30,102 nt of DNA from Promethearchaeota archaeon (lineage in GTDB: Archaea; Asgardarchaeota; Lokiarchaeia; Sigyniarchaeales; SOKP01): assembly GCA_048938855.1 (NCBI GenBank), contig JBHLLT010000028.1:7180-37281 (forward strand), in the 5' to 3' direction. The first letter of the stretch is position 1; every line of letters starts with the position of its first letter. Below the pieces are notes generated by a model. It did not search any database, had not been told where the DNA came from, and worked only from the letters and a program-made list of their open reading frames with translations. The position numbers and the translations under genes are program-made. Of the stretch, positions 5,622 to 28,219 are shown in pieces.

Positions 5622-5768
5622 AACCTGATTTATAAAATAACTTTTTGTAAGTATAAGTATTGGGAGAAAAATCGAGAGCGTATTTTGGAAAATATTAAAA
5701 ATTTATAAGTTTTTTATTCTTTTTTTAAAAGAGTCTCTAAGTTATTCTAATTGAATTGGTGAATAATA

Positions 5769-6626
5769 ATCTCTAGAAATGATTTTAAGATTTTTGATGC
5801 ACATCTTCACACTTACGGAATTTTCCTTGATCCTTTTGAAGACATCATAAGCTATATGGATCATTATAATGTAGAAAAAGCCATAATAACAACAATTAAT
5901 AGGGCAAAATATCACCAAAAACAAAAAGAATATGCTTCAAAGATTGATGGAAGAGACAATTTTAATACTTATTTAGATGATTTTAAGAGTTTAATGCCAA
6001 AAGGACAATTATCTCATAAGGATGTTATTGAATTAGCAAAAAAATCACCAGAGAGATTTTATAAATTCTTCTGGTTCAATCCTAAGTTAAATCTAGAAGA
6101 AGAAGAAGAAAATTATAAGATTTTAGAAGACCATTTTAAAAAGGGATTTATAGGTGTTAAAATTCATGGCAGTTTTAACTTTTTTAAATTTCCAGAGGAA
6201 ATTTTTAAGTTAGTAACTTTCATGCAAAATTATGATAAAGAGTTTATACTTTTTATTCATTCTCATCCAAAAACAAGGTTTCATGATGGGTCTGAGCCGC
6301 AAGATATTGCAAAATTAGCAAAAAGATTCCCAGAATTAAAGATTATTGTTGGACATGCCGCTTATTGCATGGAATATGCTGTTCTGATTTCTGTAATCCT
6401 AAAAAAATTTGATAATATTTACTTTGAAACAAGTTGTTCTGCTTCATTAGGTATATATAATCTTATTAAAACAATAGGTCATAAGAAAATAATTTTTGGT
6501 TCCGATTCACCAACGACATCTACACTACCGATTGAAATTGAAAAGATTCTTTCGATTCCGAGAATATCAAATGACATAAAACAAAACATTTTCTATAATA
6601 ATGTATCAGACTTACTGAAATTATAA
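5769..6626 (+). CDS. Amidohydrolase-family (Amidohydro_2-like) metal-dependent hydrolase with a probable non-AUG start
   Basis: Motifs GVKIH, FIHS, IIVGHA, YFETS and IIFGSDSP. The N-terminal IFDAHLH metal motif lies in frame upstream of the track's ATG at 5856, bounded by an in-frame TGA at 5760. Confidence 0.85.
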   Translation: MSRNDFKIFDAHLHTYGIFLDPFEDIISYMDHYNVEKAIITTINRAKYHQKQKEYASKIDGRDNFNTYLDDFKSLMPKGQLSHKDVIELAKKSPERFYKFFWFNPKLNLEEEEENYKILEDHFKKGFIGVKIHGSFNFFKFPEEIFKLVTFMQNYDKEFILFIHSHPKTRFHDGSEPQDIAKLAKRFPELKIIVGHAAYCMEYAVLISVILKKFDNIYFETSCSASLGIYNLIKTIGHKKIIFGSDSPTTSTLPIEIEKILSIPRISNDIKQNIFYNNVSDLLKL

Positions 6627-7736: not shown

Positions 7737-8270
7737 ATGTGTGCCAGTTATCACTTTACATTCAAGATTTTACTTTTAGGGGATGCTAGTGTCGGAAAAA
7801 CATCATTTACTAAAAGATATTGTTACAATATCTTTAATCCAAGTGAAAGACTCACAATTGGAGTTGACTTTCATGTCAAAACAATTGAATTAAATGGAAA
7901 GCGAATAAAATTACAATTATGGGATGTTGGAGGAGAAGAACGTTTCAGGTTTTTACTACCCACTTACTGTTTAGGCGCAAATGCTGCTTTCCTACTCTAT
8001 GATATTACTAGGCCTTCCACATTAGATAATATATCTGAATGGATAACAATTGTCAGGCAAAAAGGTGGACAAATACCAATTATGCTTGTAGGTTCAAAAT
8101 TAGACCTTGAAAGATCTCAAAGACAAATTCAAAGAGAATATGGAATACAAATTGCCGAAAAAAACGATATGGCTAGTTTTGTTGAAATTTCAGCAAAGGA
8201 AAATATCAATGTGGATAATGCTTTTAGAGTTCTTACTGAAATAACATTAGAAAAAACTGGCAACAGGTGA
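7737..8270 (+). CDS. Rab-like small GTPase (Ras superfamily)
   Basis: G1 GDASVGKT, G2 TIGVDF, G3 WDVGGE, variant G4 GSKLD and G5 SAK. No C-terminal prenylation cysteines. Confidence 0.93.
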   Translation: MCASYHFTFKILLLGDASVGKTSFTKRYCYNIFNPSERLTIGVDFHVKTIELNGKRIKLQLWDVGGEERFRFLLPTYCLGANAAFLLYDITRPSTLDNISEWITIVRQKGGQIPIMLVGSKLDLERSQRQIQREYGIQIAEKNDMASFVEISAKENINVDNAFRVLTEITLEKTGNR

Positions 8271-8274
8271 TGTA

Positions 8275-9237
8275 ATGGAAGAAACCGAATATTTGCCTCT
8301 CAGCCAATTATTTGATTCAATTGGCATCATTGAAAAAGGTATTGAAAGGATTTACCATTATCTCCTAGTGAATAAAAGAATTGATAATCTTAAGGAAGTT
8401 TGCGATCAATTTGGTCTCTCATTAAAAAGAGGTTATAAAATTTGCTCAGTTTTAAGTGATCTAGGTCTAGTCCAGATTTATGACAGACCAATGAAAATTC
8501 ATATAGCGAACCCAATAATGACTTTATGGCAAAATTTAATTAATAAACGAATTGAAGATCTTAAAAACGAATTTCAAGAAAAAAGTGAGAAATGTGAAGC
8601 TGCCATTGAAAGTTTCACAAGAAAATACAAAATGGACGAGGAGGTGATTCAAGAACCAGTTGAATTTATCAATTACAATATTAAGAATTTTGATGAATCT
8701 TATCACTCATTCTTAGCTCAAAGTGAAAGTAAAATTGCAATTGGCATTAGATATGATAATCCATTGATTGCATTAATAAAACAACATGGTTTTAATAAGA
8801 TACCTGATGAAATGAGCGAATCTATGAAAACAGGAATAGTTAGAATTAAAGATAATTTAAAAAATATCACTGTTCAAGTTATTTTTCATTCTGATGTTGT
8901 TAAGGAGCTTTTAAATAGTCATGAATTTGAACAACTTACTAAAAATATCGAAATTTTTAATTTGGAGTTTAAAAGTATTTTAATTCGTGTCACTGATGAA
9001 AATTTCAGTAATTTCAGTCTAACTGACAATGAAATAATTCAACCCAGCTTTGATCCCGCATTTGAGCTGATAGGAGTATATATTTCAAGAAATAAAAGTA
9101 TATATCAAATCTTTAATGATAAATTTAATCAAATATTTAAAAGTGGGATACCTCTTAAACAATTCTTATCGGATGATGATGAAATTAAAATAGAATCTCT
9201 TTCTGACACTCAGCAATTTGTTTTATGTATTATGTAA
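8275..9237 (+). CDS. TrmB-like transcriptional regulator (N-terminal HTH, coiled coil, C-terminal effector domain)
   Basis: HTH-like segment IYHYLL...LKEVCDQFGLSLKRGYKICSVLSDLGLV followed by a coiled coil, as in TrmB proteins. It starts 4 nt after the GTPase stop. Confidence 0.6.
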   Translation: MEETEYLPLSQLFDSIGIIEKGIERIYHYLLVNKRIDNLKEVCDQFGLSLKRGYKICSVLSDLGLVQIYDRPMKIHIANPIMTLWQNLINKRIEDLKNEFQEKSEKCEAAIESFTRKYKMDEEVIQEPVEFINYNIKNFDESYHSFLAQSESKIAIGIRYDNPLIALIKQHGFNKIPDEMSESMKTGIVRIKDNLKNITVQVIFHSDVVKELLNSHEFEQLTKNIEIFNLEFKSILIRVTDENFSNFSLTDNEIIQPSFDPAFELIGVYISRNKSIYQIFNDKFNQIFKSGIPLKQFLSDDDEIKIESLSDTQQFVLCIM

Positions 9238-10923: not shown

Positions 10924-12969
10924 TTAACTCATCAATTTCTGTATTTTTTTAATAAAAATGTCGTTTATTAACAATTCTATTGAAGGATGGTCTTTTAATT
11001 CAACCACTCGATTAGTATTATAATAGATATTTATTATTTCCCAAATTTTATTAGAAGATTTTATAGACTCAACGAATTTTGTCAATTTCTGGTTAGCAAA
11101 ATATGTCTGTCCCTTAAATAAATAACAGACTGAAAAAGGAGTAACTGATTGCATTAGGATTGTATAATCACCAAATTTAGCACGATCAAGCCTTTTTGCA
11201 AAAAGTTCTCCACTAAAAGAATCAAATGCGCTAAGAAATCCACTTATTAAATCTTCTTCAAAATCCCATTCTTTTGTAAAAGAATTTGAAAATAAAGGAA
11301 ATCCTCCTTCTCCGATAATAAGAAGTAACACAGGTATTTCTTGAGATGGCTCAGTAGGTTTTACGACACGCTTTCCTTGCATCCGATCTATAACTCCATC
11401 TACAGATGCTAGCTTTATGCGTTCTGACATTGGAATTTTTTCCTTTTCAAGATTTTTCCAGAAATTTAATTGATCTAACAAATTATCATGCTCATTTGAA
11501 ATCTTAATAGATAATAAGTTGAGACCATGGAGTTCAGCAATTTGTTGAGCTTGTGTTAACAATTCTTCTGCATCTTTGATTTTAGCTTGTATCAATGCCA
11601 ATTTGCCTTGTAGCAATTTAATTTCTGCTAACCATAAATATGCATTTTGCTTCTCAGCAATCTTAGATATACGTGATATTAATGGATTTAATTCTTCCAA
11701 AACTTCTGAATTATTTGTCATCTCTAATTCCTCTAAGAAAATTTCACTTAAACTAACCAATGCTGAGAGATATAAATGAGGAGTAGCGATTTTATCTTCA
11801 GTAATTTGTTTTAATAATAATTCTGCTTCAGTTCGATTACGGATTCGACCACTACTTTTCAATACTAATGCTTTTGCAACCATATACACTTGATCAAAAA
11901 CTTTACTATTACTTTGATTGGTAAAATGTTCTAATTTTACTAGATTTAATTCTGCTTGTTCTTGTGATTTGTTATCGAGATTGGTAAGAATCAAATAAAA
12001 GAGTGAAGAGCTTACTCCATAGGGAGAATTATACTTTTCCGCAGTTTCCATACTAAGTTGTAAGTATTTTAATGCTTCATCAATTTCTCCTTTCATTCTA
12101 TAGGTTGAGCCAATACTCATGGTACTTTCAATGAAATCTTCCATATATCCTTCTTTTTTAGCAAGTTTAGCTGCTTTATTATAATACTTTAAAGATCTGT
12201 CTACTTCACCTTTTTGTTTATAAATAGCACCTAAAAGATGATATATTCGAAGTTTTATAGCAATGCTAATTTCTTGATTATTAACAAAACCTTTTACTAT
12301 CCTTAATGATTGATCAAAATCTCCCTTCTGAAAATGAATAAGCCCTATTAAATAAAGGCTTGATACAATTCCAATTTGATTACCTAATTCTTCTCGTATA
12401 CTTAAACTCTTATTTGCATAATCTAAAGCTTTATTTAGCTCACCTTTATAAATATACATATCTGCTACTTCGTAATATAGAAAAGCAAGATCAAGTGCTT
12501 TTTTTTGGCTTTCATGTAGTTCTAACCATTGAAATGCCAATTCCAATGCTTTATTATGCTCAGTTTTATAGTGATAGGCAAATGATTTAATAAGTAAGCA
12601 ATCAGCTTTTTGATTTTCATCATAAGAATCGATTAATAATCGTTCCGCCTCTGAAATATATTGTAAAGCATTTTCTGCTTTTCCAAGAAATAAAACATAT
12701 GCTTTTATGATTAAAGCATCAATTGTTTTTGAGGAAATACCTATTTTTGTACTTAATAGGTATGCTCTTTCTCCTAATTCTACTGCTTCTTTATATTTTT
12801 GTTGATAAGAATACAATTTCCCTTTTAATATTAGAAGTTCTACATGTTCATTTGTATTTTCATCTATTTTTTTTTCTAAAATTGTAATTAATTGAAATGC
12901 TTCATTAAATTTCGCTTGATTTATTAATTGTTCCACATTATTGAATTCTTTGTCCATTAAGTCTGACAA
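10924..12969 (-). CDS. TPR-repeat protein with C-terminal longin-like domain
   Basis: Multiple TPR units (e.g. YIYKGELNKALDYANKSLSIREELG). The C-terminal VLLLIIGEGGFPLF...LISGFLSAFDSFSGE...LDRAKFGDYTIL matches a longin-type beta-beta-alpha-beta-beta-beta-alpha pattern. Paralog of the genes at 26267 and 28280. Confidence 0.8.
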   Translation of the reverse strand: MSDLMDKEFNNVEQLINQAKFNEAFQLITILEKKIDENTNEHVELLILKGKLYSYQQKYKEAVELGERAYLLSTKIGISSKTIDALIIKAYVLFLGKAENALQYISEAERLLIDSYDENQKADCLLIKSFAYHYKTEHNKALELAFQWLELHESQKKALDLAFLYYEVADMYIYKGELNKALDYANKSLSIREELGNQIGIVSSLYLIGLIHFQKGDFDQSLRIVKGFVNNQEISIAIKLRIYHLLGAIYKQKGEVDRSLKYYNKAAKLAKKEGYMEDFIESTMSIGSTYRMKGEIDEALKYLQLSMETAEKYNSPYGVSSSLFYLILTNLDNKSQEQAELNLVKLEHFTNQSNSKVFDQVYMVAKALVLKSSGRIRNRTEAELLLKQITEDKIATPHLYLSALVSLSEIFLEELEMTNNSEVLEELNPLISRISKIAEKQNAYLWLAEIKLLQGKLALIQAKIKDAEELLTQAQQIAELHGLNLLSIKISNEHDNLLDQLNFWKNLEKEKIPMSERIKLASVDGVIDRMQGKRVVKPTEPSQEIPVLLLIIGEGGFPLFSNSFTKEWDFEEDLISGFLSAFDSFSGELFAKRLDRAKFGDYTILMQSVTPFSVCYLFKGQTYFANQKLTKFVESIKSSNKIWEIINIYYNTNRVVELKDHPSIELLINDIFIKKIQKLMS

Positions 12970-13098: not shown

Positions 13099-15336
13099 TT
13101 AGAATTCAAGAAGATTAATTGGCCTAAAAAGAAGTTTATTCACTAGACTAAAATCATCAAGAATTTCAGCAGGTCTAATTGTAGAAAAGTTTTGTTTGGA
13201 CTCACAATACTCTTTAGATGATAAGGGATATGGGAATAAGCATTTAATACATGTTTTGTTTTCATTACATTTGATACAACTTCTTTTTTGCATTTTTAGT
13301 GTTTGCGACTGATTAATGTTTTTTACAATTTCCTGAAAGGAATTGCCAATTTTTCCTATAGGCTTGGAATACCAACAAATTCGAATTGAATCATCATTTT
13401 CTATAATTGCTGTTTCTAAAGTCCGGCAATTTGCTTGATTTTGTGTCCATCTACATAAATGTTGAAAGTGAGGCAATGGTTTACTATCAAATAAGGTTTC
13501 GAGTATATCTTCATTTTTTGAAAGCTCTATTAAGTAATTGTAAAGGGTTTTAGTGTCTATTGTTTCATAATCTACACTAATTAAATATGGTAGATCGCTT
13601 AAACCTGTGCTATATTCCTCCATTATTCTATAAGTGTTTTTTAATTTTATAGGAAAACCAATTAGATCGCCAAAAAGGTCTGCTCTCACAGATTTTAAAG
13701 CAGGAATACCAGCAATACTTTCACGATAGTACGATTCATAAAAAGACGTAGGAGAAAATTCATTATTAAGAATCCTTCTATTTTTTTCATATAATTTTTT
13801 ATATTGCAATTTATTTGAATAAATTTGTATTATTGGGCCATTTATAGCAAGATTTTCTTGTAGCCATTTCACAAGAGACGACTTCATGTAATCAGAATTG
13901 ATTATTGCATTATCAAAAAAAGGTTTAGGTTTTGAACGTTTTGTATTTAAAGATAATATTTTAATAATATCAAAATCAATTACCCTATTATGTTTTATAG
14001 CAGCACATTTTAGAGATAATTTTATTTTATAAACATCAAAGGGAAAATCGTTTTCAGTAAGAACATTATTTTTTCCTCCCATTGGTTTAATATTATAACC
14101 GCATTTCTTATGGTTCTGATAAATAGGTGTGCCCTTGTAGATATGGAATATATTATGAGTATAAAAATCAATATCTAATTGATTTATTAATTCGATGGTC
14201 TTTTGAGCATTCTTTATTGATTCACCAGGTAATCCAATCATAATACTCGCATATACTTTATCAATTCCTATTTTTTTAGCATAAGATGTCATGTGCTTTA
14301 ATTTTTCAATATATTGAATCTCCTTTCCAAAATCTTCAGAATTAATGTCTCCTGGAGGCCTTACCTTCCCTATTGTATTTAAAACTCTGGGTACTGCACT
14401 TTCAAGAGAAAATCCTATTGAAACAAACCCGGCTTGTTTCATCAGATCTAATAGTTCTTCGTTAACTTTATCGCATCGAGTAGTACAGAGTAAAGGGATT
14501 TTTATATCATTCTCAATTATGGCTTCACAAATTATTTTAGCTCTTTTAGGGAGAATCGTAAAGCTATCATCAACAATAGGGACTGCCCCAGTAAATTTTT
14601 TATATTGGTTAATGAGATTTAATTCGTCAATTACTCGATCTATTGAATGGAAAAAAACATTTTTCTTACTCATAACAGCACAATTACAATAAATGCAATT
14701 TTGATTACAACCTCTACCTGTTATTATACCTATTGGAAATGCCCTTGAGATAGGTATAACTCCTGAAAGATACGGAGAAGGATATTTGTCAATATAATTT
14801 TTAATTGATAGATTTGAGAGAAATATATTACTTTCAGGATTAGTTTGAATATTATTTTTTTTTCTAAATGTAATCCCTTTTATCTTAGAAAAATCCACTT
14901 GATTCAAATTAAAATCATTATTCGCTAAATTATTTAACAATTCCAGAACAATTTCTTCACCTTCACGTCTTACACAGACGTCAACACTTCTGATCATTTC
15001 CATAATTTCTTTAGGCTGTACACTAGGTGTAGGACCTCCAAAGATAATTATGACGTCAGAATTGGACCCTTTTATACCTTTACTAATTAGTGCACACTGC
15101 ATAAAATTTGTATCATAAACTGTAAATCCAATTACTTTAGGTTTATATTCCATCAATTTCTTTACGCATTCGGTTACATTACAAGAGTCCTCAGAAATAA
15201 ATTGTTCAACTTCAAATCCATGTTTCTTTAAATAGGCAATAATGTATGCTGAACCTAGATGATGTCTAAAATTAGTAAAGTATAAATCTCCACCAGAAGG
15301 AAATACCATCAAGAGATCAATAGGTTTTTTATTCAA
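13099..15336 (-). CDS. Cobalamin-binding radical SAM enzyme with C-terminal SPASM-like Cys-rich domain
   Basis: B12-binding N-terminus (HLGSAYIIAYLK, VIGFTV, IIFGGPTP, VRREGE) and radical SAM motif GRGCNQNCIYC, followed by DDSFT, FSLES and IMIGLPGE. The C-terminus reads C...C...IRICWYSKPIGKIG...CIKCNENKTCIKC...YC. TTG start. Confidence 0.9.
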   Translation of the reverse strand: MNKKPIDLLMVFPSGGDLYFTNFRHHLGSAYIIAYLKKHGFEVEQFISEDSCNVTECVKKLMEYKPKVIGFTVYDTNFMQCALISKGIKGSNSDVIIIFGGPTPSVQPKEIMEMIRSVDVCVRREGEEIVLELLNNLANNDFNLNQVDFSKIKGITFRKKNNIQTNPESNIFLSNLSIKNYIDKYPSPYLSGVIPISRAFPIGIITGRGCNQNCIYCNCAVMSKKNVFFHSIDRVIDELNLINQYKKFTGAVPIVDDSFTILPKRAKIICEAIIENDIKIPLLCTTRCDKVNEELLDLMKQAGFVSIGFSLESAVPRVLNTIGKVRPPGDINSEDFGKEIQYIEKLKHMTSYAKKIGIDKVYASIMIGLPGESIKNAQKTIELINQLDIDFYTHNIFHIYKGTPIYQNHKKCGYNIKPMGGKNNVLTENDFPFDVYKIKLSLKCAAIKHNRVIDFDIIKILSLNTKRSKPKPFFDNAIINSDYMKSSLVKWLQENLAINGPIIQIYSNKLQYKKLYEKNRRILNNEFSPTSFYESYYRESIAGIPALKSVRADLFGDLIGFPIKLKNTYRIMEEYSTGLSDLPYLISVDYETIDTKTLYNYLIELSKNEDILETLFDSKPLPHFQHLCRWTQNQANCRTLETAIIENDDSIRICWYSKPIGKIGNSFQEIVKNINQSQTLKMQKRSCIKCNENKTCIKCLFPYPLSSKEYCESKQNFSTIRPAEILDDFSLVNKLLFRPINLLEF

Positions 15337-15450: not shown

Positions 15451-15720
15451 TTAGCGCCCTATAGTTTCATAGTTATCCATGACGTCCATAATAACAACTA
15501 AATTCTTTTTGTCAATTTTCTTATCGGTAATTTCTTTTTTAAATACTTCTTCAAGATGGCGCATAATAGCTTCTTTTTCCATTTCTTTTGCCATTGAATC
15601 TTTAATGACACGGATTATCTTCTTTCCTATAGTCTTACCATATGTAGACTTAATAAGTTTTGCTGGAGATTCTTTTAAATTTAGATTCCATTTTCTACTT
15701 TTCTGCTCATTTTCAGACAT
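15451..15720 (-). CDS. Small helical protein A (89 aa), candidate precursor/substrate ending MDVMDNYETIGR
   Basis: ATG at 15720 with a GTGA SD 5 nt upstream. Gapless paralog of 15922..16170. Confidence 0.85.
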   Translation of the reverse strand: MSENEQKSRKWNLNLKESPAKLIKSTYGKTIGKKIIRVIKDSMAKEMEKEAIMRHLEEVFKKEITDKKIDKKNLVVIMDVMDNYETIGR

Positions 15721-15739
15721 TTTAATCACTTTAAACTTT

Positions 15740-15921: not shown

Positions 15922-16170
15922 TTAGCTACCAATAGTTTCATAATTACTCATAAGATCCATCATCTTTGTTATATCGGAGAGTGTTATCTCTTCTGCTGCT
16001 ATTTCTTGTTCAAGACATCTAGCTAAACATTCCTCAACTTGACTTTGATCTTTATCCTCTTTCATGCAATCTTTAAAGCAATTTAAAATTTTATTTCCTA
16101 GCTCTTCCCCCCAATTATCAATAATAAGATCTTTAGTAGATTTTTCCAAATCTTTTTTCCATCCCACCAT
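15922..16170 (-). CDS. Small helical protein B (82 aa), candidate precursor/substrate ending MDLMSNYETIGS
   Basis: Paralog of 15451..15720, with two CxxxC pairs (CFKDC, CLARC). Confidence 0.85.
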   Translation of the reverse strand: MVGWKKDLEKSTKDLIIDNWGEELGNKILNCFKDCMKEDKDQSQVEECLARCLEQEIAAEEITLSDITKMMDLMSNYETIGS

Positions 16171-16392: not shown

Positions 16393-16647
16393 TTAGTAAA
16401 TTGCTCGATTTCTGACATTAATCCTATTCTTTATGTCTTCAATTCGTTTTGCTTCTTTAAGATAATTAGCGTTGTATTTAGCTTTATTTAAAAGTTTTCT
16501 TAAAGCTTTTTTTTGTGGTTTCTCCCGTTTGCTAACTGCTATTTCCTCATGCTTCTCCTCTTCCATAGGGAGTTCTTCAATAATTATAATCTCTTCCAAA
16601 ACAACACTATATTTAAGTTCATTATTCTTATCTAACACTTGTATCAT
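16393..16647 (-). CDS. Hypothetical protein (84 aa; acidic N-half, basic C-half)
   Basis: Strong SD GAGGTGA 7 nt before the ATG, and a T-tract downstream at about 16345-16355. Confidence 0.65.
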   Translation of the reverse strand: MIQVLDKNNELKYSVVLEEIIIIEELPMEEEKHEEIAVSKREKPQKKALRKLLNKAKYNANYLKEAKRIEDIKNRINVRNRAIY

Positions 16648-17164: not shown

Positions 17165-17737
17165 CTAAGAATCACCTAGTTCCATATCAGAAGATAATGC
17201 TTTGAATTTTTCATATAATTCATTTATAATTGCGTTAAAAGCCTCAACGACGCCTTGGCCTGTTTTAGCAGAAGTTATATAATATCCTAAAAATTTATGC
17301 TCTGATACTATTTTTTTAATAGGTGAATTATCTAAATTCTTTTCATCAATTAGATCAACTTTATTAGCAAATAATACGACAGGAATTTCGCCACAAAATT
17401 GTATAATATCACTATACCAATTTGATATATGTTTGAAGCTTTCTTCACCAAGATCATTCTTTTCAAGACTGTATACTATTATAGCCGCTCTACTATTTTT
17501 AAAAAAGGATGGTCGCAAAAAATTGAAATCATCTTGGCCTGCAATATCCCAAAATAATAATTTAATATTATCCTCATTTATATCTTTGAGGAATACAGAA
17601 AATTGAGCCCCAATTGTTTTAATATAGTCTTCGTGAAATCCCCCTTGAGTGTATTTTTTTATGAGAGAAGTTTTTCCGACTCTTCCATCTCCAACTACAG
17701 TAATTTTAAAATTAAATTTTGCCCCTGTACTACTCAT
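17165..17737 (-). CDS. Rab-like small GTPase (paralog of 25330..25875)
   Basis: Motifs GDGRVGKT, TIGAQF, WDIAGQD, NKVD and TSAK. Confidence 0.93.
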   Translation of the reverse strand: MSSTGAKFNFKITVVGDGRVGKTSLIKKYTQGGFHEDYIKTIGAQFSVFLKDINEDNIKLLFWDIAGQDDFNFLRPSFFKNSRAAIIVYSLEKNDLGEESFKHISNWYSDIIQFCGEIPVVLFANKVDLIDEKNLDNSPIKKIVSEHKFLGYYITSAKTGQGVVEAFNAIINELYEKFKALSSDMELGDS

Positions 17738-18298: not shown

Positions 18299-20245
18299 AT
18301 GTTGACAGATACAAATATAATCAATTACCCTCCTAAGGAAATTTTAGAACCCCCCTCTAAAATCAGTAAGCCAAATTTTGAACTAATTATACTTTGGATG
18401 TTAAATAACAATAATTTTTGTACAAGTGCAAACTTTTTAGAAATTAAAGATTTGAAGTCAAAACCTGTATTATCTAAATCAACTTTATATAATTATCTAA
18501 AAGGTCTAATTGAAGAGGATTATATAACTAAAAGTAAATATAATCATTACAAAATTAGTTCTAGAGGTAGAGATAGATTTTATGAACTATCTCAAGCTAA
18601 AAACAAAAAAAGAAAATTGAATTTTCCTCCAGATGTGATTCTAAGAAAACGTAACTATAATCATTGGATTCTCTGGATGTTATATAATAATACTTATTGT
18701 AAATGGGCTGATTTCTTAAATGATCCACTTAAAATAAATCAATCCTCATTATCTAAAAACATGAACTTGCTAATGAGTCAAGATTTTATCAGAAAAGAAG
18801 ATAAAGAATATAGGATTACGCAGTTAGGGAAAATTGAATATTCTAATATGTTAAGAGTCTACGATTTAGACAGGCAGTCAATCTTGGAGGAAGAAGGAAA
18901 AAGAATTAAGGAAATAACCATAACAACTATTAATTTTTTCAAGAAATTTAACATAAAAGATGAAGATATCCGATTTCGTTTTTTAAATAATGTGTTAAAA
19001 TTACCTTATGAGAAAGTTAAATCTTCTATAGATTCTGAAGAGGATTTTCATAAGATTTTATTATTCTTAGCTATAAATCACCCAGATCAATACCCATTTT
19101 ATATTTCTTCTGAGGACTTTTCTCAAGATTATAATATAAACCATGTTAAACTCAAATTTATTATCCTCCGAATTGTTGAGGAAGATATCTTTCCCATAAA
19201 ATTTTTCAAATTAGCACAAAATCAACGTGAAATCTATTATTTCCAGGAAAATGAAAAATTAGAAAGGATGCTAAATGCTATTGTGGAAGATCATATAACT
19301 AAATTTTCATATTTAAATAATCTTTATGAAGCTACTCCCTATGAAATATCTCCATTGACCATGGAAAGAACAGTTGCAGCGATTTTAGAAGAAATTTGTG
19401 TGAATCTGTTTGATAATGGATTAAAAGAATCATTGCGGAAATTTCTACCGGAATATCTTAATTATTTAGCATATAAAATTGAAAAGGAAAAGAAATTAAT
19501 TGATACTTATGATAAGTTAGAGGGACTAATATGGCAAGAAATACAAGTTTATAATTTTAAAAATGATTCAGGGAAAAATGAATTTAATAAAGCGCTTAGT
19601 GAAATCGATGAAGCTATTAAATTAGATCCAAAAAATGTTGATTTACACTATTCTAAAAGTAAAATTCTATATGATAATGGTGAATATAAACAAGTATTAA
19701 GTTATTTAAACCAAATGCTTACAGATTTTCCTCAAGAGGAGAAAAACATACAGGTAAAAAGAGCTTATATTCTTAAAGAGATGAAGGATGTAAAAACAGG
19801 ATTAGAAATCATCAATTATTTAGTTGGTAAATACCCGGAAGATGATGATCTTCGTAATTATAAAGCTTTTTGGCTGCAATATTTAAATAGAAAAGAGGAA
19901 TCTATAAAAATTATTAAAGATCTTATAGAACGAGCTCCTAATAATGCAACATATCATGATAGTTATGGTGAAATCCTAATGTTCTTCAAAGATTATGAAA
20001 ATGCTATTAGTGAGTTCCTTAAAGTAATAAATATTAGTAGTGGTGATTGGTACCTTTACCAAACCAATATTAAAGTTGGGATTTGTTATAGAGAAATTGA
20101 AGATTATGAAAACGCGATAGAATATCTCCAAAAAGGTAAAGAATTAATAGACAAATCCTCCAGTGATCTCGAAGAAAGAGCAAAATGGATTACGATCGCG
20201 AATTTATTCTTAGCTGAAATTGAACATTTAAAAGAGGAATTTTAA
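18299..20245 (+). CDS. Tandem winged-helix plus TPR protein (putative transcriptional regulator)
   Basis: Two internal repeats of the form N[YF]PP..I...ILWML.NN..C...FL...S[TS]L....L......Y.I[ST]..G, and C-terminal TPRs (YHDSYGEILMFFKDYENAISEFLK). Confidence 0.8.
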   Translation: MLTDTNIINYPPKEILEPPSKISKPNFELIILWMLNNNNFCTSANFLEIKDLKSKPVLSKSTLYNYLKGLIEEDYITKSKYNHYKISSRGRDRFYELSQAKNKKRKLNFPPDVILRKRNYNHWILWMLYNNTYCKWADFLNDPLKINQSSLSKNMNLLMSQDFIRKEDKEYRITQLGKIEYSNMLRVYDLDRQSILEEEGKRIKEITITTINFFKKFNIKDEDIRFRFLNNVLKLPYEKVKSSIDSEEDFHKILLFLAINHPDQYPFYISSEDFSQDYNINHVKLKFIILRIVEEDIFPIKFFKLAQNQREIYYFQENEKLERMLNAIVEDHITKFSYLNNLYEATPYEISPLTMERTVAAILEEICVNLFDNGLKESLRKFLPEYLNYLAYKIEKEKKLIDTYDKLEGLIWQEIQVYNFKNDSGKNEFNKALSEIDEAIKLDPKNVDLHYSKSKILYDNGEYKQVLSYLNQMLTDFPQEEKNIQVKRAYILKEMKDVKTGLEIINYLVGKYPEDDDLRNYKAFWLQYLNRKEESIKIIKDLIERAPNNATYHDSYGEILMFFKDYENAISEFLKVINISSGDWYLYQTNIKVGICYREIEDYENAIEYLQKGKELIDKSSSDLEERAKWITIANLFLAEIEHLKEEF

Positions 20246-20274: not shown

Positions 20275-22065
20275 TTATTCTTTTTCTACAAAGTTTTCTA
20301 ATTCATCTATTTTATCAGATAAGAATTTAATTCCTTTTTCCCAGAATGAAGGATCACTTAAATTGATGCCAATTTCAGCTAACATTTCTTCTGGAGAAAG
20401 TGAACTCCCAAGAGAAAGTAATTTAAGATATTTTGGAACGAATTTTTCCTTTTGTTCAAGATATAATTGATAAATTGAAATGACTAGAAGATTAGCCATA
20501 TTATACGCATAAACATAGAAAGGGACTTGAAGAAAATGAGGGATAACAAAACAATAATTTGAATATTCTTCATTAATATTCACTATCGAATTTCCAAACA
20601 TCATTTCCATTTCCTTTACAAAAGCATTTTCATATTCTTTAGTTGTAGGTAACTTTTGTTCCAATAAATTATGAATTACATTTTCAAACTTATAGAAAGC
20701 GTTTTGCCTATGGGAGGTACTAAAATTTCTTTCAATAAAATTGCATAACAATAATACTTTTTCTTCTTTGGAAAGATTCATATCCATTAAATAATCGAAA
20801 GTCAATATTTCATTGAATACTGAAGCAATTTCTGCAACAACAAGGGAAATGTCAATATTTATAAAATTTTGGTTTTGTTGAATATAATACGCATGAAATG
20901 CATGGCCAAGTTCGTGAGCTAAAGCACTTACAGAACTAACAGTATTCTCAAAATTGACAAAAACAAACCCGTAGTGTTTTTGTTTTCCATGAGCACAAAA
21001 AGCACCTCTATTTTTTCCTTGTCTCGGTGTTGCATCAATATGATTTAACTCAACCATTTTATCTACAATATTTTTAAACTCGGGGTAAAATTTAGTAACT
21101 GAATCTTTTATTAATGTTATAGCTTCTTGATAGGTGTATTTCCTTGTGACTTTTCCAACGGGACAATAGATATCAGATATATGTAATTCAGGAAGATTTA
21201 GAAGCTTTTTCTTTATAAAGTAGTATTTTTCAACAATATTATAACTTTCTGTTGTGACTTTTTCGACAACTTCAACAGTTTCATCGCTTATTTCATTTTC
21301 TAAGTTCCTTCTTGATATAGGTTTTTTAAAATTCTTCCGTTTGCTTTCTAAATCCCAATTTTTTAAGATATTATTATAAATATGGGTAAAAACCATTTCG
21401 TGTTCTTTATATTTACTCATCATTGTCTGTAAAGCTTTATATCGAAGATCCTTGTTACCTTGATACATATAAGAAAAAAGCTCAGCTTCAGTTAATTTCT
21501 TCATTTCATCATCTACTTCGAAATCGAATAAGAAACTACTTTTTAATTCACTATAAAGCTTTTGGAATCCACTAACTCCGGTAATATCTTTCATTAAAAT
21601 TATTTGTTCTTCTTTTTCTGAAAGTTGGTGAGCCTTTTTCAATCTATTGAATTTTAAAGCATGTTTATATTTTTTCAATTCTGGAGAATTAATTAATTCT
21701 TCAAATTTGATATCTGAAATTCTATTTAGCTCCAAATCAAAAAACAAGAGTTTTTCTTGAATTAGAACTTTAAATTCATCTATTTTAGCAAAAAAAGATT
21801 TAACATCATTGTTTAAACGATTGATTCTATAGAGTAATGATGAATAAGTATCGAAGTAAAATAGTTTCTCTAAAATATCCTCATACTGTTTATAAAATTC
21901 AAGGAGTTTTTTTGAAGTTAAGGAAGGGTCCTCCAATTTTCCTTTGATTTTTAAATTAAAATTTTCAGCTTTATTTTCTAATTCTTTAATATCTTTCTCT
22001 ATTTGTGGATCAGTTATCCCTGTATAGAAATCACTTAAATCCCATTTGATGATTTCTTGTGTCAT
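20275..22065 (-). CDS. pepF: Oligoendopeptidase F (peptidase M3B)
   Basis: N-terminal WDLSDFY, GKNRGAFC, zinc motif AHELGHAFH, AEIASVFNE and HF...FYVYAY. ATG at 22065 is preferred. Confidence 0.9.
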   Translation of the reverse strand: MTQEIIKWDLSDFYTGITDPQIEKDIKELENKAENFNLKIKGKLEDPSLTSKKLLEFYKQYEDILEKLFYFDTYSSLLYRINRLNNDVKSFFAKIDEFKVLIQEKLLFFDLELNRISDIKFEELINSPELKKYKHALKFNRLKKAHQLSEKEEQIILMKDITGVSGFQKLYSELKSSFLFDFEVDDEMKKLTEAELFSYMYQGNKDLRYKALQTMMSKYKEHEMVFTHIYNNILKNWDLESKRKNFKKPISRRNLENEISDETVEVVEKVTTESYNIVEKYYFIKKKLLNLPELHISDIYCPVGKVTRKYTYQEAITLIKDSVTKFYPEFKNIVDKMVELNHIDATPRQGKNRGAFCAHGKQKHYGFVFVNFENTVSSVSALAHELGHAFHAYYIQQNQNFINIDISLVVAEIASVFNEILTFDYLMDMNLSKEEKVLLLCNFIERNFSTSHRQNAFYKFENVIHNLLEQKLPTTKEYENAFVKEMEMMFGNSIVNINEEYSNYCFVIPHFLQVPFYVYAYNMANLLVISIYQLYLEQKEKFVPKYLKLLSLGSSLSPEEMLAEIGINLSDPSFWEKGIKFLSDKIDELENFVEKE

Positions 22066-22190
22066 AAAAGAGAAAATAAACAAATATTATTTGAATTTTA
22101 CTAGGGATTTTCAAATTTGCTAAAATAATTATTGAAAAATTTCCTCACAAATCAAAATGTAAAATAAATCATTTGCTATTAATATAAATA

Positions 22191-23414: not shown

Positions 23415-25307
23415 ATGAGTGTTATTAACCATCCTCCTGATGAAATTTATAAGACACCTAAATTTGGAAAAAAAAATTTCGAGCACATTATCCTTTGGAT
23501 GTTGAATAATAATGATGAATGTCAGTGGTCTGATTTTACTGAAAAACCATTAGAACTTCGTTTATCTACATTATCTAAATATCTTTCTATGTTAAAAGGG
23601 AGAGGCTATGTTGATAATTATGCTCGAGGCCATTACCGAATAACACCTGAGGGTCAAAAGAGATTTAACGAGATCTCAGGGGCTCTTAAGAAGAAGCGTA
23701 AGTTGAATTATCCTCCTTCTGTGATTATGAGAAGAAGAAATTATGATCATTGGATTTTGTGGATGGTATATAATAATAGTTATTTGAAATGGTCTAATTT
23801 TCTCGAAGATCCTCTCTCTATTAATCAATCTTCTTTATCTAAAAACATGAATTTGTTAATCGATAAAGGACTTGTATTGAAAGAAAATAAAAGATATCAA
23901 ATTACACAATCGGGTAAGTTAGAATACTCAAGGATACTCCAGAATTATGATTTAGATAGACAATCAATTTTAGATGAAGAGACTAAAAGGATTGAAGAGA
24001 TTACTAAATCAACATTAAATTTCTTTGAAAAATACAAAATCGAAAATGAAGATATTCAATTTAGATTCCTTAATAATGTACTTAGACTTGACTATACAAG
24101 AGTCAAACCGATGTTAACTGAAGAGGAAGAGTTCCATAAAATATTACTTTTCATTTCTATGAATCACCCTGATCAATATCCTGATTACATTGCACAGGAA
24201 GATTTTTCAAACATATATGGAATTAAGAAATCAAAACTTGAATATTATATTGACGAAATAGTAGAGAATCAAATATATCCCATAAAATTCTTCAAATTAA
24301 TTGTATCAAAAGACAAACAATATTACTTTCAGGAAAATGAGAGATTAGAAATAATGCTAAGAGCCATTACAGAAGATTATATCACCAAATTTAATTATTT
24401 AAACAAATTATTTTCAAGATCTTTAGATATCCGTGCCACTCTAGATAATATCTTAGAAGATATATGCAAAATGCTATTTAATGAGAAATTAAAAGAACCC
24501 TTAAGAGATTTTATGCAAGATTATATCAATTATCTGGCTTATAAAATCGAGGCAAAAGTTGAGTTAAAAGAAACTTATGATAAATTGGAGGGAATTATAT
24601 GGCAGGATATGATAGAGATATTTACTACCAAAAGTAAGGCCCCGGATGAGCAATTTGAGAAAAAGATTAAAGAGATTGACATTAAAATTAAGGATGATCC
24701 AGAAAATCTCGATTTATATAATTCTAAGATAGGGATTTTAATTTATTATGAGAAGCTTTATGATGTAATAGATTTGTTAGATGATATGTTAGAAATTTTC
24801 CCTGATTACGAATTAGATATAAAGATGAAGAAAGCATCAGTTCTCAGAAGATTACGAAAAATTAAGGCTGGACTAGATATAATTGATGACCTAATTAGCG
24901 AATATCCTGAAAACACAGATCTTCTTAATTATAAGGCGTACTGGTTGCATTATATGGATAAAAAAGAAGAAGCAATAGAAATATTGCAAAATCTTACTAA
25001 AAAAGTAACCAATAATGGGACTTATCATGATACATTCGGGGAAATATTGATGTATTATGAAGAATATAAAGATGCAGTTAATAAATTCCAAAAAGCAATA
25101 GAAGTGGCTGCAGACGAGTGGTATATTAATCAAACATACATTAAACTAGGAATTTGTTATAAGGAACTTGAAAATTACGATTTAGCTGTTGAAAATCTTA
25201 AAAAAGGTAAAGAATTAACAAAAAAGAGTAAAGCTGATGATGAAACAAAGCAAAAATGGCTCACAATTGCAGATCTCTTCCTGGCAGAGATTATGCAACT
25301 TGAATAA
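23415..25307 (+). CDS. Tandem winged-helix plus TPR protein (paralog of 18299..20245)
   Basis: Same double-wHTH repeat and shared blocks INQSSLSKNMNLL, YDLDRQSIL, NHPDQYP and TYDKLEG, plus C-terminal TPRs. Confidence 0.8.
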   Translation: MSVINHPPDEIYKTPKFGKKNFEHIILWMLNNNDECQWSDFTEKPLELRLSTLSKYLSMLKGRGYVDNYARGHYRITPEGQKRFNEISGALKKKRKLNYPPSVIMRRRNYDHWILWMVYNNSYLKWSNFLEDPLSINQSSLSKNMNLLIDKGLVLKENKRYQITQSGKLEYSRILQNYDLDRQSILDEETKRIEEITKSTLNFFEKYKIENEDIQFRFLNNVLRLDYTRVKPMLTEEEEFHKILLFISMNHPDQYPDYIAQEDFSNIYGIKKSKLEYYIDEIVENQIYPIKFFKLIVSKDKQYYFQENERLEIMLRAITEDYITKFNYLNKLFSRSLDIRATLDNILEDICKMLFNEKLKEPLRDFMQDYINYLAYKIEAKVELKETYDKLEGIIWQDMIEIFTTKSKAPDEQFEKKIKEIDIKIKDDPENLDLYNSKIGILIYYEKLYDVIDLLDDMLEIFPDYELDIKMKKASVLRRLRKIKAGLDIIDDLISEYPENTDLLNYKAYWLHYMDKKEEAIEILQNLTKKVTNNGTYHDTFGEILMYYEEYKDAVNKFQKAIEVAADEWYINQTYIKLGICYKELENYDLAVENLKKGKELTKKSKADDETKQKWLTIADLFLAEIMQLE

Positions 25308-25329: not shown

Positions 25330-25875
25330 TTATGTTACATTTAAATTATTATAATATAATTTTTCTATTATTGTATTAAAGGCTTTAATTACTCCTTGTC
25401 CTGTTTTAGCAGAGGTAATATAATATCCGAGAAAGTTATTTTCTTTGACTAAATTTTGAATTTTGGTTTCAATTAAATTATCTTTATCAACCAAATCAAC
25501 TTTATTGGCAAATAAAATTACGGGGACATTACCACAGTGCTTTTTTAATTCATTATGCCAATTTGAAATATGATTAAAACTATCTTCGCCCAGATCATTC
25601 TCCTCAAGACTGTATACTATTATGGCTGCTCTACTCTCTTTATAAAATAAGGGATGAAGAAAATTAAAATCATCTTGTCCTGCTATATCCCAGAATATTA
25701 GATTAATTGTATTTCCATTAATCTCTTTATCATATCTAGAAAACTGGGCACCAATAGTCTTGATATAGTCTTTTTCAAAAGTACCTTTCGTAAATTTCTT
25801 TATTAGAGAAGTCTTACCTACTCCTCCATCTCCTATTATTGATATTTTAAATTCATATTCCTGAGGATTAGTCAT
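25330..25875 (-). CDS. Rab-like small GTPase (paralog of 17165..17737)
   Basis: Motifs GDGGVGKT, TIGAQF, WDIAGQD, NKVD and TSAK. Confidence 0.93.
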   Translation of the reverse strand: MTNPQEYEFKISIIGDGGVGKTSLIKKFTKGTFEKDYIKTIGAQFSRYDKEINGNTINLIFWDIAGQDDFNFLHPLFYKESRAAIIVYSLEENDLGEDSFNHISNWHNELKKHCGNVPVILFANKVDLVDKDNLIETKIQNLVKENNFLGYYITSAKTGQGVIKAFNTIIEKLYYNNLNVT

Positions 25876-26266: not shown

Positions 26267-28219
26267 TTAAACGAAGTTTTTTTGAATAAAAATCTCTTGT
26301 ATGAGAGACTCTAATGAAGGAATGTCTGTTGTGTCAATTTTTCTATTCATTTGATAAAATTTGTTAAAACGATCCCATAATTCTTTGTTACTCTTTATAT
26401 TTGTAATAAATGACTTTATTCTGTTTTGGGCAGAATAAGATTGACCCTTGTATACATAACACATTAAAAAAGGTGAGATAGAGTTCATTAGGAGTGTGTA
26501 TTCTCCGAAAGAAGCACGATCAAGCCCTTGGGAAAAGACTTCGTTGATAAATGTATTAATAGCAGTAAAAAACCCTCCAAAAAGGTGATCTTCAAACTTT
26601 TTATCCGTGATAAAAGACTGAGAGAAAAATGGGATACCACCCTCTGAAACAATCAATAGTAAAACCGGTTCTTCATCGGAGAGTTCCGGAACATCGACTT
26701 TTTGTTTTTTTACCATATTTTTTATTTGCTCATCTAGTCTGGAAAGTTTCAAGCGTTCAGATAAGGGTGCTTCTGATTTCTTTAACTTCTCCCATATCTC
26801 TAATTGTCTAAGTAATTCATCATGTTCAAAGGAGATTTTCATTGCCAAGCGTTTCATATTATAGGTTTCTGCTATCTTCTGTGCTTGAGTCAAAAACAAT
26901 CGAGCCGATTTTATATCAAAATCTAGTAAAGCTAATCTAGCTTTAAGTATAAAAGTTTCACAGAAAACTAAATAAGAATTTTGATTTTCCGCGATGGTTA
27001 ATAATTTGGTAATGTAATGATTTAATTCGGCCAAAATCTCATTATCATTATCAATATGATATTCCATGAGAAGTATGTCACAAAGATGGATATGAGCAGC
27101 GATAATAAGATCAAAGGCTATTGTATCAGTTTCTATAAGTTCTTTGAATAATTCTTCTGCTTTTGCTTTATCTCGGATTCGAGAACTTGTTTTTAAAATT
27201 AGGGCTTTAGCGAATTTGTAACCAATATCAATTCCATTGCCTCTTTTCTGGCTATAAATATCTTCCAAACGATGAAAATATTTTTGAGCTAGCTCGTTAT
27301 CTCCATGTTCAACAGTTAAGATTATCAAACTTACAATGGGGGCCTTTATATCAAACCAACTGTGAGGAAGTTGTTCTAAAAGATTTATACTCTCCTCTGA
27401 ATGTTCCACAGCAAGTTCATATTTACCCATTTCACCATATAAATCCCCAATATTATTTAATACAATTGCGATATTAAACCTAGTTTTTATCTTTTTAAAT
27501 AATTCTAAACTCTTTATGTTATATTGCAAGCTTTTATCAATTTCACCAATAGATAAATAATATGCTCCAAAATAGAGTTGACATAAAGCAATCCAGCAGT
27601 GATTAAATTTAATTTCCTTGGCAAGAGATAATGCTTTTTCGATATGCTCCCTGCAAAGATCAAAGTTGCTTTTTACTCGCAATAAATAACTCGCCATTAA
27701 AAGATTAGCCCAGACGATTTCGAATGATTTATCTAATTTTTCTTGCGAATCTAATATCCACACTAGAGATTTCTCAACCATTTCTATTTTACCACCATGC
27801 AATCCAGCAAAAGCTTTTGTTACACTTAAACGAGCTTTCCTTTGAGTTATAATTTCTTTTGACACATTTGAAATAGATTTTAATACTAACTCAGCATTCT
27901 CACAAAGTTTGAATGCCTGCTCAAATTTACCAGCCAAAGCTGATCCAGTAATAATAAAATATAATCCATCAAAAGATTGGAGATTATCATTATATTTTTG
28001 ACCTTCTTCATACATGTTCTCGCCTAAACCAATGAGATCTTCGCCATTATTATGATCAAAAAGAATTAACCCCTTAAGAAACTGAAAATAACTTTTTTGC
28101 TGAAGATTAAGCCCATTATATTGACTTGGATCGTCTAATATTTCAAGAGCTTCATTTAACTTACCCTCATCAAATAACTGCTCCGCTCTTGTTAATTTCT
28201 TTAGGTCTGGCTTGTACAT
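26267..28219 (-). CDS. TPR-repeat protein with C-terminal longin-like domain (tandem copy 1)
   Basis: TPRs (LNNIGDLYGEMGKYELAVEHSEESI) and C-terminal VLLLIVSEGGIPFFSQSF...LFGGFFTAINTFINEVF...LDRASFGEYTLL. Confidence 0.82.
   Translation of the reverse strand: MYKPDLKKLTRAEQLFDEGKLNEALEILDDPSQYNGLNLQQKSYFQFLKGLILFDHNNGEDLIGLGENMYEEGQKYNDNLQSFDGLYFIITGSALAGKFEQAFKLCENAELVLKSISNVSKEIITQRKARLSVTKAFAGLHGGKIEMVEKSLVWILDSQEKLDKSFEIVWANLLMASYLLRVKSNFDLCREHIEKALSLAKEIKFNHCWIALCQLYFGAYYLSIGEIDKSLQYNIKSLELFKKIKTRFNIAIVLNNIGDLYGEMGKYELAVEHSEESINLLEQLPHSWFDIKAPIVSLIILTVEHGDNELAQKYFHRLEDIYSQKRGNGIDIGYKFAKALILKTSSRIRDKAKAEELFKELIETDTIAFDLIIAAHIHLCDILLMEYHIDNDNEILAELNHYITKLLTIAENQNSYLVFCETFILKARLALLDFDIKSARLFLTQAQKIAETYNMKRLAMKISFEHDELLRQLEIWEKLKKSEAPLSERLKLSRLDEQIKNMVKKQKVDVPELSDEEPVLLLIVSEGGIPFFSQSFITDKKFEDHLFGGFFTAINTFINEVFSQGLDRASFGEYTLLMNSISPFLMCYVYKGQSYSAQNRIKSFITNIKSNKELWDRFNKFYQMNRKIDTTDIPSLESLIQEIFIQKNFV

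Follow-up and report, generated by a model that had tools for sequence, protein, structure and literature searches.

Two groups of radical S-adenosylmethionine (SAM) enzymes are the closest described systems to the one considered here, which is encoded on the reverse strand of a 30,102-nucleotide stretch of DNA (the window) from a Promethearchaeota archaeon (contig JBHLLT010000028.1, positions 7,180 to 37,281). Class B (cobalamin-dependent) enzymes—TokK (7KDX), CysS (9N1B), the PhpK family and, among enzymes of peptides that are ribosomally made and modified post-translationally (RiPPs), ApyD and PoyC—carry a B12-binding domain at the N-terminus and a radical SAM core after it, and their logic is methyl transfer through B12. 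SPASM enzymes such as anSMEcpe (4K36-4K39), SuiB (5V1Q), CteB (5WGG), PqqE (6C8V) and ChlB (9GM3), several of which modify small peptides encoded next door, follow the SPASM/twitch logic, in which auxiliary clusters handle electrons and serve peptide cross-linking. The literature searched keeps B12-binding and SPASM/twitch enzymes apart as different radical SAM subgroups (PMC9477430; PMC9204698).

The 745-codon gene in the window appears to join the two. We propose, with a probability of roughly two in three, that it encodes a four-module peptide-modifying radical SAM enzyme in which a class B unit is fused to a degenerate SPASM-type unit, and that the small protein encoded upstream is its substrate. 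The parts are known; the conserved combination, an apparent fossil second barrel and a small-protein partner common to archaea and bacteria are not described in the literature searched. A search for a B12 and SPASM fusion, or for such an Asgard RiPP, likewise found no description, which does not prove that none exists. The features of the locus are listed in Table 1.

Table 1. Features of the locus, in window coordinates.
Feature	Position	Strand	Residues	Remarks
Enzyme gene	13099..15336	-	1-745	TTG start, 745 codons without a stop; B12-binding, radical SAM, Cys-free alpha/beta half-barrel (predicted) and divergent SPASM domain
Cobalamin (B12)-binding domain	14938..15264	-	25-133	Pfam PF02310, E 3.1e-17, 63 bits (cut-off 32.1)
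Radical SAM core	14185..14727	-	204-384	Pfam PF04055, E 2.4e-18, 67 bits (cut-off 29.5)
CxxxCxxC motif of radical SAM core	14686-14709	-	C210/C214/C217	
Spacer	13477..13935	-	~468-620	Cys-free alternating beta/alpha half-barrel (predicted), like a radical SAM core without the SAM cluster
Divergent SPASM domain	13117..13476	-	~621-740	Eight Cys, Cx2Cx5Cx2C; supported by conservation, hhalign, fold and language-model neighbours
Small ORF B	15451..15729	-		92 aa from GTG (89 aa from ATG at 15720), ends NYETIGR; 114 nt upstream of enzyme gene; second candidate substrate
Small ORF A	15922..16170	-		82 aa, ends NYETIGS; T-tract after stop; candidate substrate/precursor
84-aa ORF	16393-16647	-		Further upstream; no Pfam match
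TPR protein gene	10924..12969	-		681 aa; 129 nt downstream of enzyme gene; Pfam TPR_12 and MalT-like TPR
TPR protein genes in window	10924-12969, 26267-28219, 28280-29881	-		
Ras-family small GTPase genes in window	17165-17737, 25330-25875	-		
wHTH+TPR protein genes in window	18299-20245, 23415-25307	+		
Oligopeptidase F gene	20275-22083	-		M3 family; ~5 kb from enzyme gene

Domain architecture and the eight C-terminal cysteines

The original prediction for this stretch of DNA, made from the sequence alone, gave the domain order as B12-binding, radical SAM, spacer and Cys-rich end. That order holds; the spacer, put at about 170 aa, comes to about 200 aa (~420-620) in our analysis. The length of 745 aa agrees with about 70 homologue clusters of 733-749 aa. 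At the sequence level the N-terminal half is a class B radical SAM unit, with PF02310 preceding a PF04055 core whose CxxxCxxC cysteines are unchanged in 42 of 42 Asgard homologues and in all 36 sequences of a combined archaeal and bacterial set. AprD4, CysS and TokK are the PDB sequence relatives of the core. It belongs to no named B12-radical SAM family: partial NCBIfam matches (PhpK, ApyD, HpnJ, KedN5, BchE, rSAM_ocin_1 and other families) span residues 12-416 and none attains its cut-off, the best being the PhpK family with 117.7 bits against a cut-off of 600, and ApyD scoring 101.5 against 750.

All of these matches stop at about residue 416, and a Pfam scan of the 745-aa enzyme finds no domain past about residue 420. 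This is where the enzyme departs from the class B families, whose models never reach residues 420-745, either here or in ten distant members of the family. Neither Pfam nor NCBIfam places a SPASM, Fer4 or zinc-finger family in residues 420-745 of the enzyme, in the 36 C-terminal halves or in the ten distant members. A six-frame PF13186 (SPASM) search of the window's own genome found four other SPASM proteins, the enzyme ORF (open reading frame) not among them.

The strings quoted in the original prediction are all present in positions 13099-13500 (residues 613-745): HLCRW (C628), ANCRTLETAIIENDDSIRICWYSKPIGKIG (C637, C654), CIKCNENKTCIKC (C687, C690, C696, C699) and YC (C711). The eight cysteines, spaced C628-x8-C637-x16-C654-x32-C687-x2-C690-x5-C696-x2-C699-x11-C711, are invariant in 42 Asgard homologues, and each is kept in 35-36 of the 36 sequences, among them bacterial homologues only 26-31% identical in the C-terminal half. 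This conservation, which reaches from Asgard archaea to Bacteroidales, Aminicenantes and Desulfobacteraceae, is far past chance, and the Cx2Cx5Cx2C signature named in the original prediction is shared by the wider family. In an extended set of 201 sequences seven of the cysteines are near-invariant and the eighth is Cys in 123; a further 64 have Ala in that column, and the rows sampled have a Cys two residues upstream (CRWSxxxCPA).

The sole exception among the 36 is one Aminicenantes copy (locus L026, 1782-3962), in which a 13-residue deletion removes the CxxCx5C stretch. Its frame is open and two tandem small ORFs lie upstream, and it could be either a decaying copy or a one-cluster variant.

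The canonical SPASM motif is CX9-15GX4C - gap - CX2CX5CX3C - gap - C, to which a further Cys upstream is added for full ligation. In number and order the cysteines of the enzyme agree with it, with deviations in the first and last spacings and in a Gly, and eight are enough for two fully ligated clusters, as in the SPASM enzymes. By analogy with these, the eight invariant cysteines most likely ligate two auxiliary [4Fe-4S] clusters.

Homology and predicted fold of the C-terminal half

A SPASM reference set was assembled from 34 SPASM regions of Asgard genomes, each over the Pfam cut-off, and profiles were compared by hhalign. The close family aligned to the SPASM-domain alignment with a score of 25.6 (P 1.3e-3, 57 columns), against at most 15.9 for controls in which the alignment was reversed or column-permuted (40 permutations). 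The extended family of 201 sequences gave a probability of 89.9% (P 1.7e-6) against the same alignment, and the C-terminal half against pooled full-length SPASM enzymes gave 42% (P 2.6e-4, 91 columns). The C-terminal half reached significance against the pooled, more diverse alignment only, and not against three alignments of separate SPASM-enzyme subgroups. The register is canonical: a beta-hairpin ending in Cys (...DDSIRIC) falls on ...dGdV.PC, PIGKIG falls on fGNI and, after a helix, R.C..C falls on the start of CX2CX5C, so that beta-hairpin, G-x-[IV]-G and CxxC stand as they do in SPASM enzymes.

Two further comparisons agree with the profile alignments. The predicted secondary structure of the Cys-rich domain runs Cys, Cys, beta-hairpin, Cys, long helix, CxxCx5CxxC and a final Cys in a helix, which is the order of the SPASM topology. 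Among the protein-language-model neighbours of residues 590-745, 19 of the 30 named clusters carry PF13186 (score 0.94).

The C-terminal half was then modelled. An AlphaFold2 model of residues 421-745, built on the 36-sequence alignment, has a mean predicted local distance difference test (pLDDT) score of 86 and a predicted template modelling (pTM) score of 0.86; residues 596-745 alone model with low confidence (pLDDT 63). Foldseek, which the original prediction had suggested for the C-terminal part, returned nothing from the PDB at E <= 1e-3 and ranked anSMEcpe with a probability of 0.66-0.75. When the model was aligned by VIA-align against 48,161 representative chains, the top 13 were all radical SAM enzymes and all but viperin SPASM/twitch enzymes: SuiB (Z 6.2), anSMEcpe (Z 6.1, 236 aligned), ChlB, CteB, PqqE, BtrN, TigE, viperin, MoaA, SkfB, BlsE, SpeY and EpeE; unrelated folds start at Z 3.7. 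VIA re-scoring of the Foldseek candidates likewise placed radical SAM enzymes, again all SPASM/twitch except viperin, in 18 of the 18 best rows (anSMEcpe Z 6.7, 229 aligned, root-mean-square deviation 5.0). The SPASM enzymes named at the outset match the fold best, at Z 5.9-6.7 with 207-237 residues aligned. The predicted structure is most like SPASM/twitch enzymes, and the zinc finger or other non-SPASM fold that the original prediction had named as its counter-case was not obtained.

Because hhalign, fold, language model and Cys pattern agree, the SPASM-like reading of the C-terminus is supported, in the form of a divergent SPASM variant; it is not a plain member, as it misses the Pfam model and its motif spacing is off.

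The alignments to SPASM enzymes also run through the spacer, with anSMEcpe 2-386 pairing with model residues 53-319. Viperin lacks a SPASM domain, and its alignment covers model residues 53-254 at Z 5.0; generic or designed TIM-like folds do not exceed 3.7. Since the fold alignments cover both the spacer and the Cys-rich part, the C-terminal half as modelled looks like a whole second SPASM-type radical SAM enzyme, degenerate and fused to the class B one. A second CxxxCxxC was found in the pseudo-barrel of none of 151 family members of at least 650 aa, the few extra matches falling in the SPASM region. The enzyme differs from known SPASM enzymes in three respects: the predicted half-barrel beside its SPASM domain has no CxxxCxxC, the working SAM cluster lying instead some 250 residues upstream in a class B unit of its own that includes a B12 domain; its Cys signature is Cx2Cx5Cx2C; and PF13186 is blind to the domain.

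Two readings of the spacer had been suggested in the original prediction. A degenerate second radical SAM fragment is the better supported of the two, by the predicted alpha/beta fold and the half-barrel alignments. A peptide-recognition element of the RiPP recognition element (RRE)/PqqD fold is unsupported, as the spacer is predicted to be alpha/beta and not winged helix-turn-helix (wHTH), and no PqqD match was found in the enzyme or in the 36 C-terminal halves.

The enzyme family and its small-protein partner

A profile of the C-terminal half was run against 1.84 billion representative proteins (clusters at 50% identity) and matched 425 clusters at E <= 1e-3, of which 183 were at E <= 1e-10. 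Most of the 425 are 700-890 aa long, with the Cys-rich domain at about 600-750. The family has no name, one JGI record being labelled as a SPASM protein. The domain fusion, called unusual in the original prediction, is so among characterised enzymes; it is not a one-off, being found in at least 425 sequence clusters. No stand-alone short form was established, the short matches mostly starting inside the radical SAM core and looking like truncated gene calls. Nine of ten distant members have both B12-binding and Radical_SAM domains by Pfam, in one of them (P0110) in a different order, and the tenth (P0149, 476 aa) has no Pfam match; none of the ten matched NCBIfam at any curated cut-off. One, P0148, has a weak C-terminal PqqD-like match (E 0.012).

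Among species-representative genomes, 37 full-length loci were found in Asgard archaea and bacteria. Members of the close family come from Hermod-, Loki- (Promethearchaeota), Hod- and Thorarchaeota, the cultured Candidatus Lokiarchaeum ossiferum (L024) among them, and homologues at about 40% identity occur in Bacteroidales, Rikenellaceae, Aminicenantes, Desulfobacteraceae and "Hebobacterum". Its distribution is patchy—3 of 121 sampled genomes of the phylum carry the enzyme, and neither of two congeners of the window's genome does—which fits an accessory gene set and is the pattern that an accessory biosynthetic cluster would show.

Upstream of the enzyme gene lie two small ORFs, A and B, which are paralogous (E 1e-15); an A/T-rich block precedes each and T-tracts follow each. 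Related loci have a small ORF of 57-100 aa at the same position, and the Asgard and bacterial versions align as one family, combining a helical N-terminal body, in which [FY]-G...[GA] is conserved, with a hydrophobic C-terminal tail that is short and variable (W-[VAE]-T-[VA]-G, FVIVG, WVTLGG, IFLS, GFIVP, PHIVAPHIV). The family has no name and no Pfam domain in public data, where the records say 'hypothetical protein'. A hidden Markov model (HMM) of the small protein matches 36 of the 37 related loci, every time on the strand of the enzyme gene, and also finds loci outside its building set: L020 (at a contig edge), L021 (order peptide-TPR-enzyme) and L031. The small ORF is present in several copies in the window, L005 and L026, and is duplicated where the enzyme is; in L031 three copies (863-1066, 5684-5863, 8220-8432) flank three tandem enzyme paralogues. 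No other gene is linked to the enzyme in archaea as well as bacteria.

A linked small gene with a conserved leader-like part and a variable core is what is looked for in a precursor. Because a homologous small ORF lies on the enzyme's strand in 36 of 37 loci, across two domains of life, the enzyme is most likely a peptide maturase, and the most economical reading of the gene linkage is a precursor/maturase pair in which the small protein would be the substrate. As in several of the SPASM systems named above, the candidate substrate is encoded beside the enzyme. The arrangement recalls PqqE/PqqA and MftC/MftA, in which a small gene lies directly upstream and the candidate modification site is at the extreme C-terminus, and PqqE is among the fold matches. 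Unlike the enzyme, PqqE and MftC have no B12 domain; in the present system the small protein measures 57-100 aa and keeps a conserved helical body, and the window shows no evident gene for a separate PqqD-like chaperone.

Some loci differ in gene content. Three tandem enzyme paralogues are present in each of L031 (1167-8223, Aminicenantes) and L035 (14-5414, Desulfobacteraceae). In L079 (559-7197), the one locus that a single-protein scan of metagenomes returned, the distant member P0139 (880 aa) has no upstream small ORF of the family; its neighbours are a 657-aa protein, a 442-aa protein, a 103-aa ORF, which from a reading of its sequence we take to be PqqD-like, and the first part of another radical SAM gene.

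Proposed reaction, alternatives and neighbouring genes

Established enzymology of the class B and SPASM enzymes suggests how the modules would act. The cluster held by C210/C214/C217 would cleave SAM to give the 5'-deoxyadenosyl radical, and cobalamin would sit in the N-terminal Rossmann domain. The last two modules would represent a radical SAM enzyme of the SPASM type whose SAM-cluster motif has been lost. If the connectivity of canonical SPASM domains applies, one auxiliary [4Fe-4S] cluster would be held by C628/C637/C654/C699 and the other by C687/C690/C696/C711. The helical N-terminal ~60 aa of the small protein would be the recognition leader, and the modification would fall on its short hydrophobic tail, which reads NYETIG[R/S] here and W-x-T-V-G, FVIVG or the like in relatives. 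Our preferred guess for the modification, and the least certain step, is B12-dependent C-methylation of beta-branched or hydrophobic tail residues, in which the auxiliary clusters might act as an internal electron relay, for example in the re-reduction of cob(II)alamin.

Several observations weigh against the proposal as a whole. PF13186 does not match the 745-aa enzyme at E <= 10, any of the 36 C-terminal halves, or any of the ten distant members at E <= 0.1, and an HMM of residues 596-745 searched against PDB sequences returned noise only (best E ~1), with no SPASM protein. The Cys pattern deviates from the canonical one in a first spacing of 16, in a final Cx2Cx5Cx2C instead of Cx2Cx5Cx3C, and in the absence from this clade of the Gly of GX4C, which occurs in distant members as D-G-S-I-x-P-C. 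Fold Z scores of 6-7 are 'middling' on the tool's own scale and the structure is a predicted one; the fold evidence weighs through its exclusive match list and the clear gap to unrelated folds, not through the height of Z. Neither profile-profile nor language-model search links the spacer to radical SAM cores, its likeness to a barrel coming solely from the predicted fold. The Asgard locus holds no dedicated protease, transporter or clear RRE, its neighbours being tetratricopeptide repeat (TPR) and small-GTPase genes.

With the same architecture and a peptide substrate, the tail might receive a carbon-carbon or carbon-heteroatom cross-link instead of, or besides, a methyl group, for example a three-residue cyclophane on aromatic-x-x, the SPASM clusters accepting the radical intermediate's electron, as they do in cross-linking maturases of the SPASM kind. 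The tails repeat an aromatic residue or His followed two residues on by T, I, V, L or S (WVT, WAT, WET, YET, FVI, FIT, HLI, YTI, FIV; HIV twice in one tail), although such a pattern may arise by chance in hydrophobic tails. The closest fold matches SuiB, CteB, ChlB, PqqE and TigE are peptide cross-linkers, whereas most characterised class B enzymes are methyltransferases; we regard a cross-link as the chief alternative, to be taken seriously though less likely than methylation. Going further, the family may represent a new class of peptide modification in Asgard archaea and anaerobic bacteria: a class B/SPASM-maturase fusion with a decayed SAM site that, using cobalamin and three [4Fe-4S] clusters, would carry out a combined or new reaction, such as a coupling of methylation and cross-linking at the very C-terminal end of a small folded protein. 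This is rather unlikely; if it were true, the Asgard product, instead of being an exported antibiotic, could act together with the TPR protein that always adjoins.

It is distinctly unlikely that the substrate is not a peptide—a lipid, tetrapyrrole or phosphonate-like molecule—and the small protein a partner, chaperone or regulator. The partial family matches do include PhpK (a P-methyltransferase), HpnJ (hopanoid) and BchE, but they lie far under their cut-offs (118 versus 600 bits, for instance) and reach no further than the generic B12 and radical SAM part. The absence of protease and exporter from the Asgard locus, the adjoining TPR proteins and Ras-family GTPases, and a small protein larger and with a more conserved N-terminal part than many RiPP leaders would all suit such a role; against it, this protein's gene is the sole one linked in both archaea and bacteria, multiplies with the enzyme and has a hypervariable tail like those of precursors. 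Very unlikely, in turn, is a Cys-rich C-terminus that forms a zinc-binding or purely structural module, or a twitch-like domain holding just one auxiliary cluster. Zinc binding by paired CxxC...CxxC is conceivable in principle, no SPASM match came from Pfam or the PDB sequence search, and the domain modelled alone has low confidence (pLDDT 63); yet the invariant cysteines number eight, not four, with SPASM-like order and spacing, hhalign puts beta-hairpin, G-x-[IV]-G and CxxC in SPASM register with 90% probability, the fold matches are SPASM/twitch enzymes and not zinc fingers, and the language-model neighbours are SPASM clusters.

If the proposed peptide-modifying fusion of class B and SPASM-type units is right, a family with both B12 and SPASM would be a natural test case for the cooperation of auxiliary clusters and cobalamin, and could shed light on the re-reduction of cob(II)alamin in class B enzymes. 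What looks like a fossil second radical SAM barrel is also preserved in the family, and it would be among very few peptide-modification systems proposed for Asgard archaea. As the candidate substrate is encoded next door, the question is directly testable by co-expression, and as Candidatus Lokiarchaeum ossiferum is cultured and has a homologue, study in a living organism is feasible. The SPASM variant described here escapes present domain libraries, so that such enzymes are undercounted by automated annotation.

Homologues of the TPR protein that the window encodes downstream of the enzyme were found by tblastn in 26 of 26 Asgard loci, adjoining the enzyme gene wherever the contig shows it. 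In Bacteroidales loci (L025 2717-5080, with equivalents in L027, L028, L030 and L036) the small ORF is directly preceded by the gene for a TPR protein of 715-787 aa. The N-terminus of this protein resembles a TIR-type motif (..DIFISYRQKD..), Pfam giving TPR repeats only, and the protein was rejected as an orthologue of the Asgard TPR protein, the similarity being of the generic TPR kind.

The window as a whole holds many paralogous TPR proteins, Ras-family small GTPases and wHTH+TPR proteins (Table 1). The gene for an M3-family oligopeptidase F recurs in eight Asgard loci, and it may be either a candidate for the leader protease or no more than a neighbour. The 84-aa ORF further upstream is kept in 12 Asgard loci (42-85% identity) and encodes a protein with an acidic middle and a basic C-terminus ending ...NVRNRAIY.

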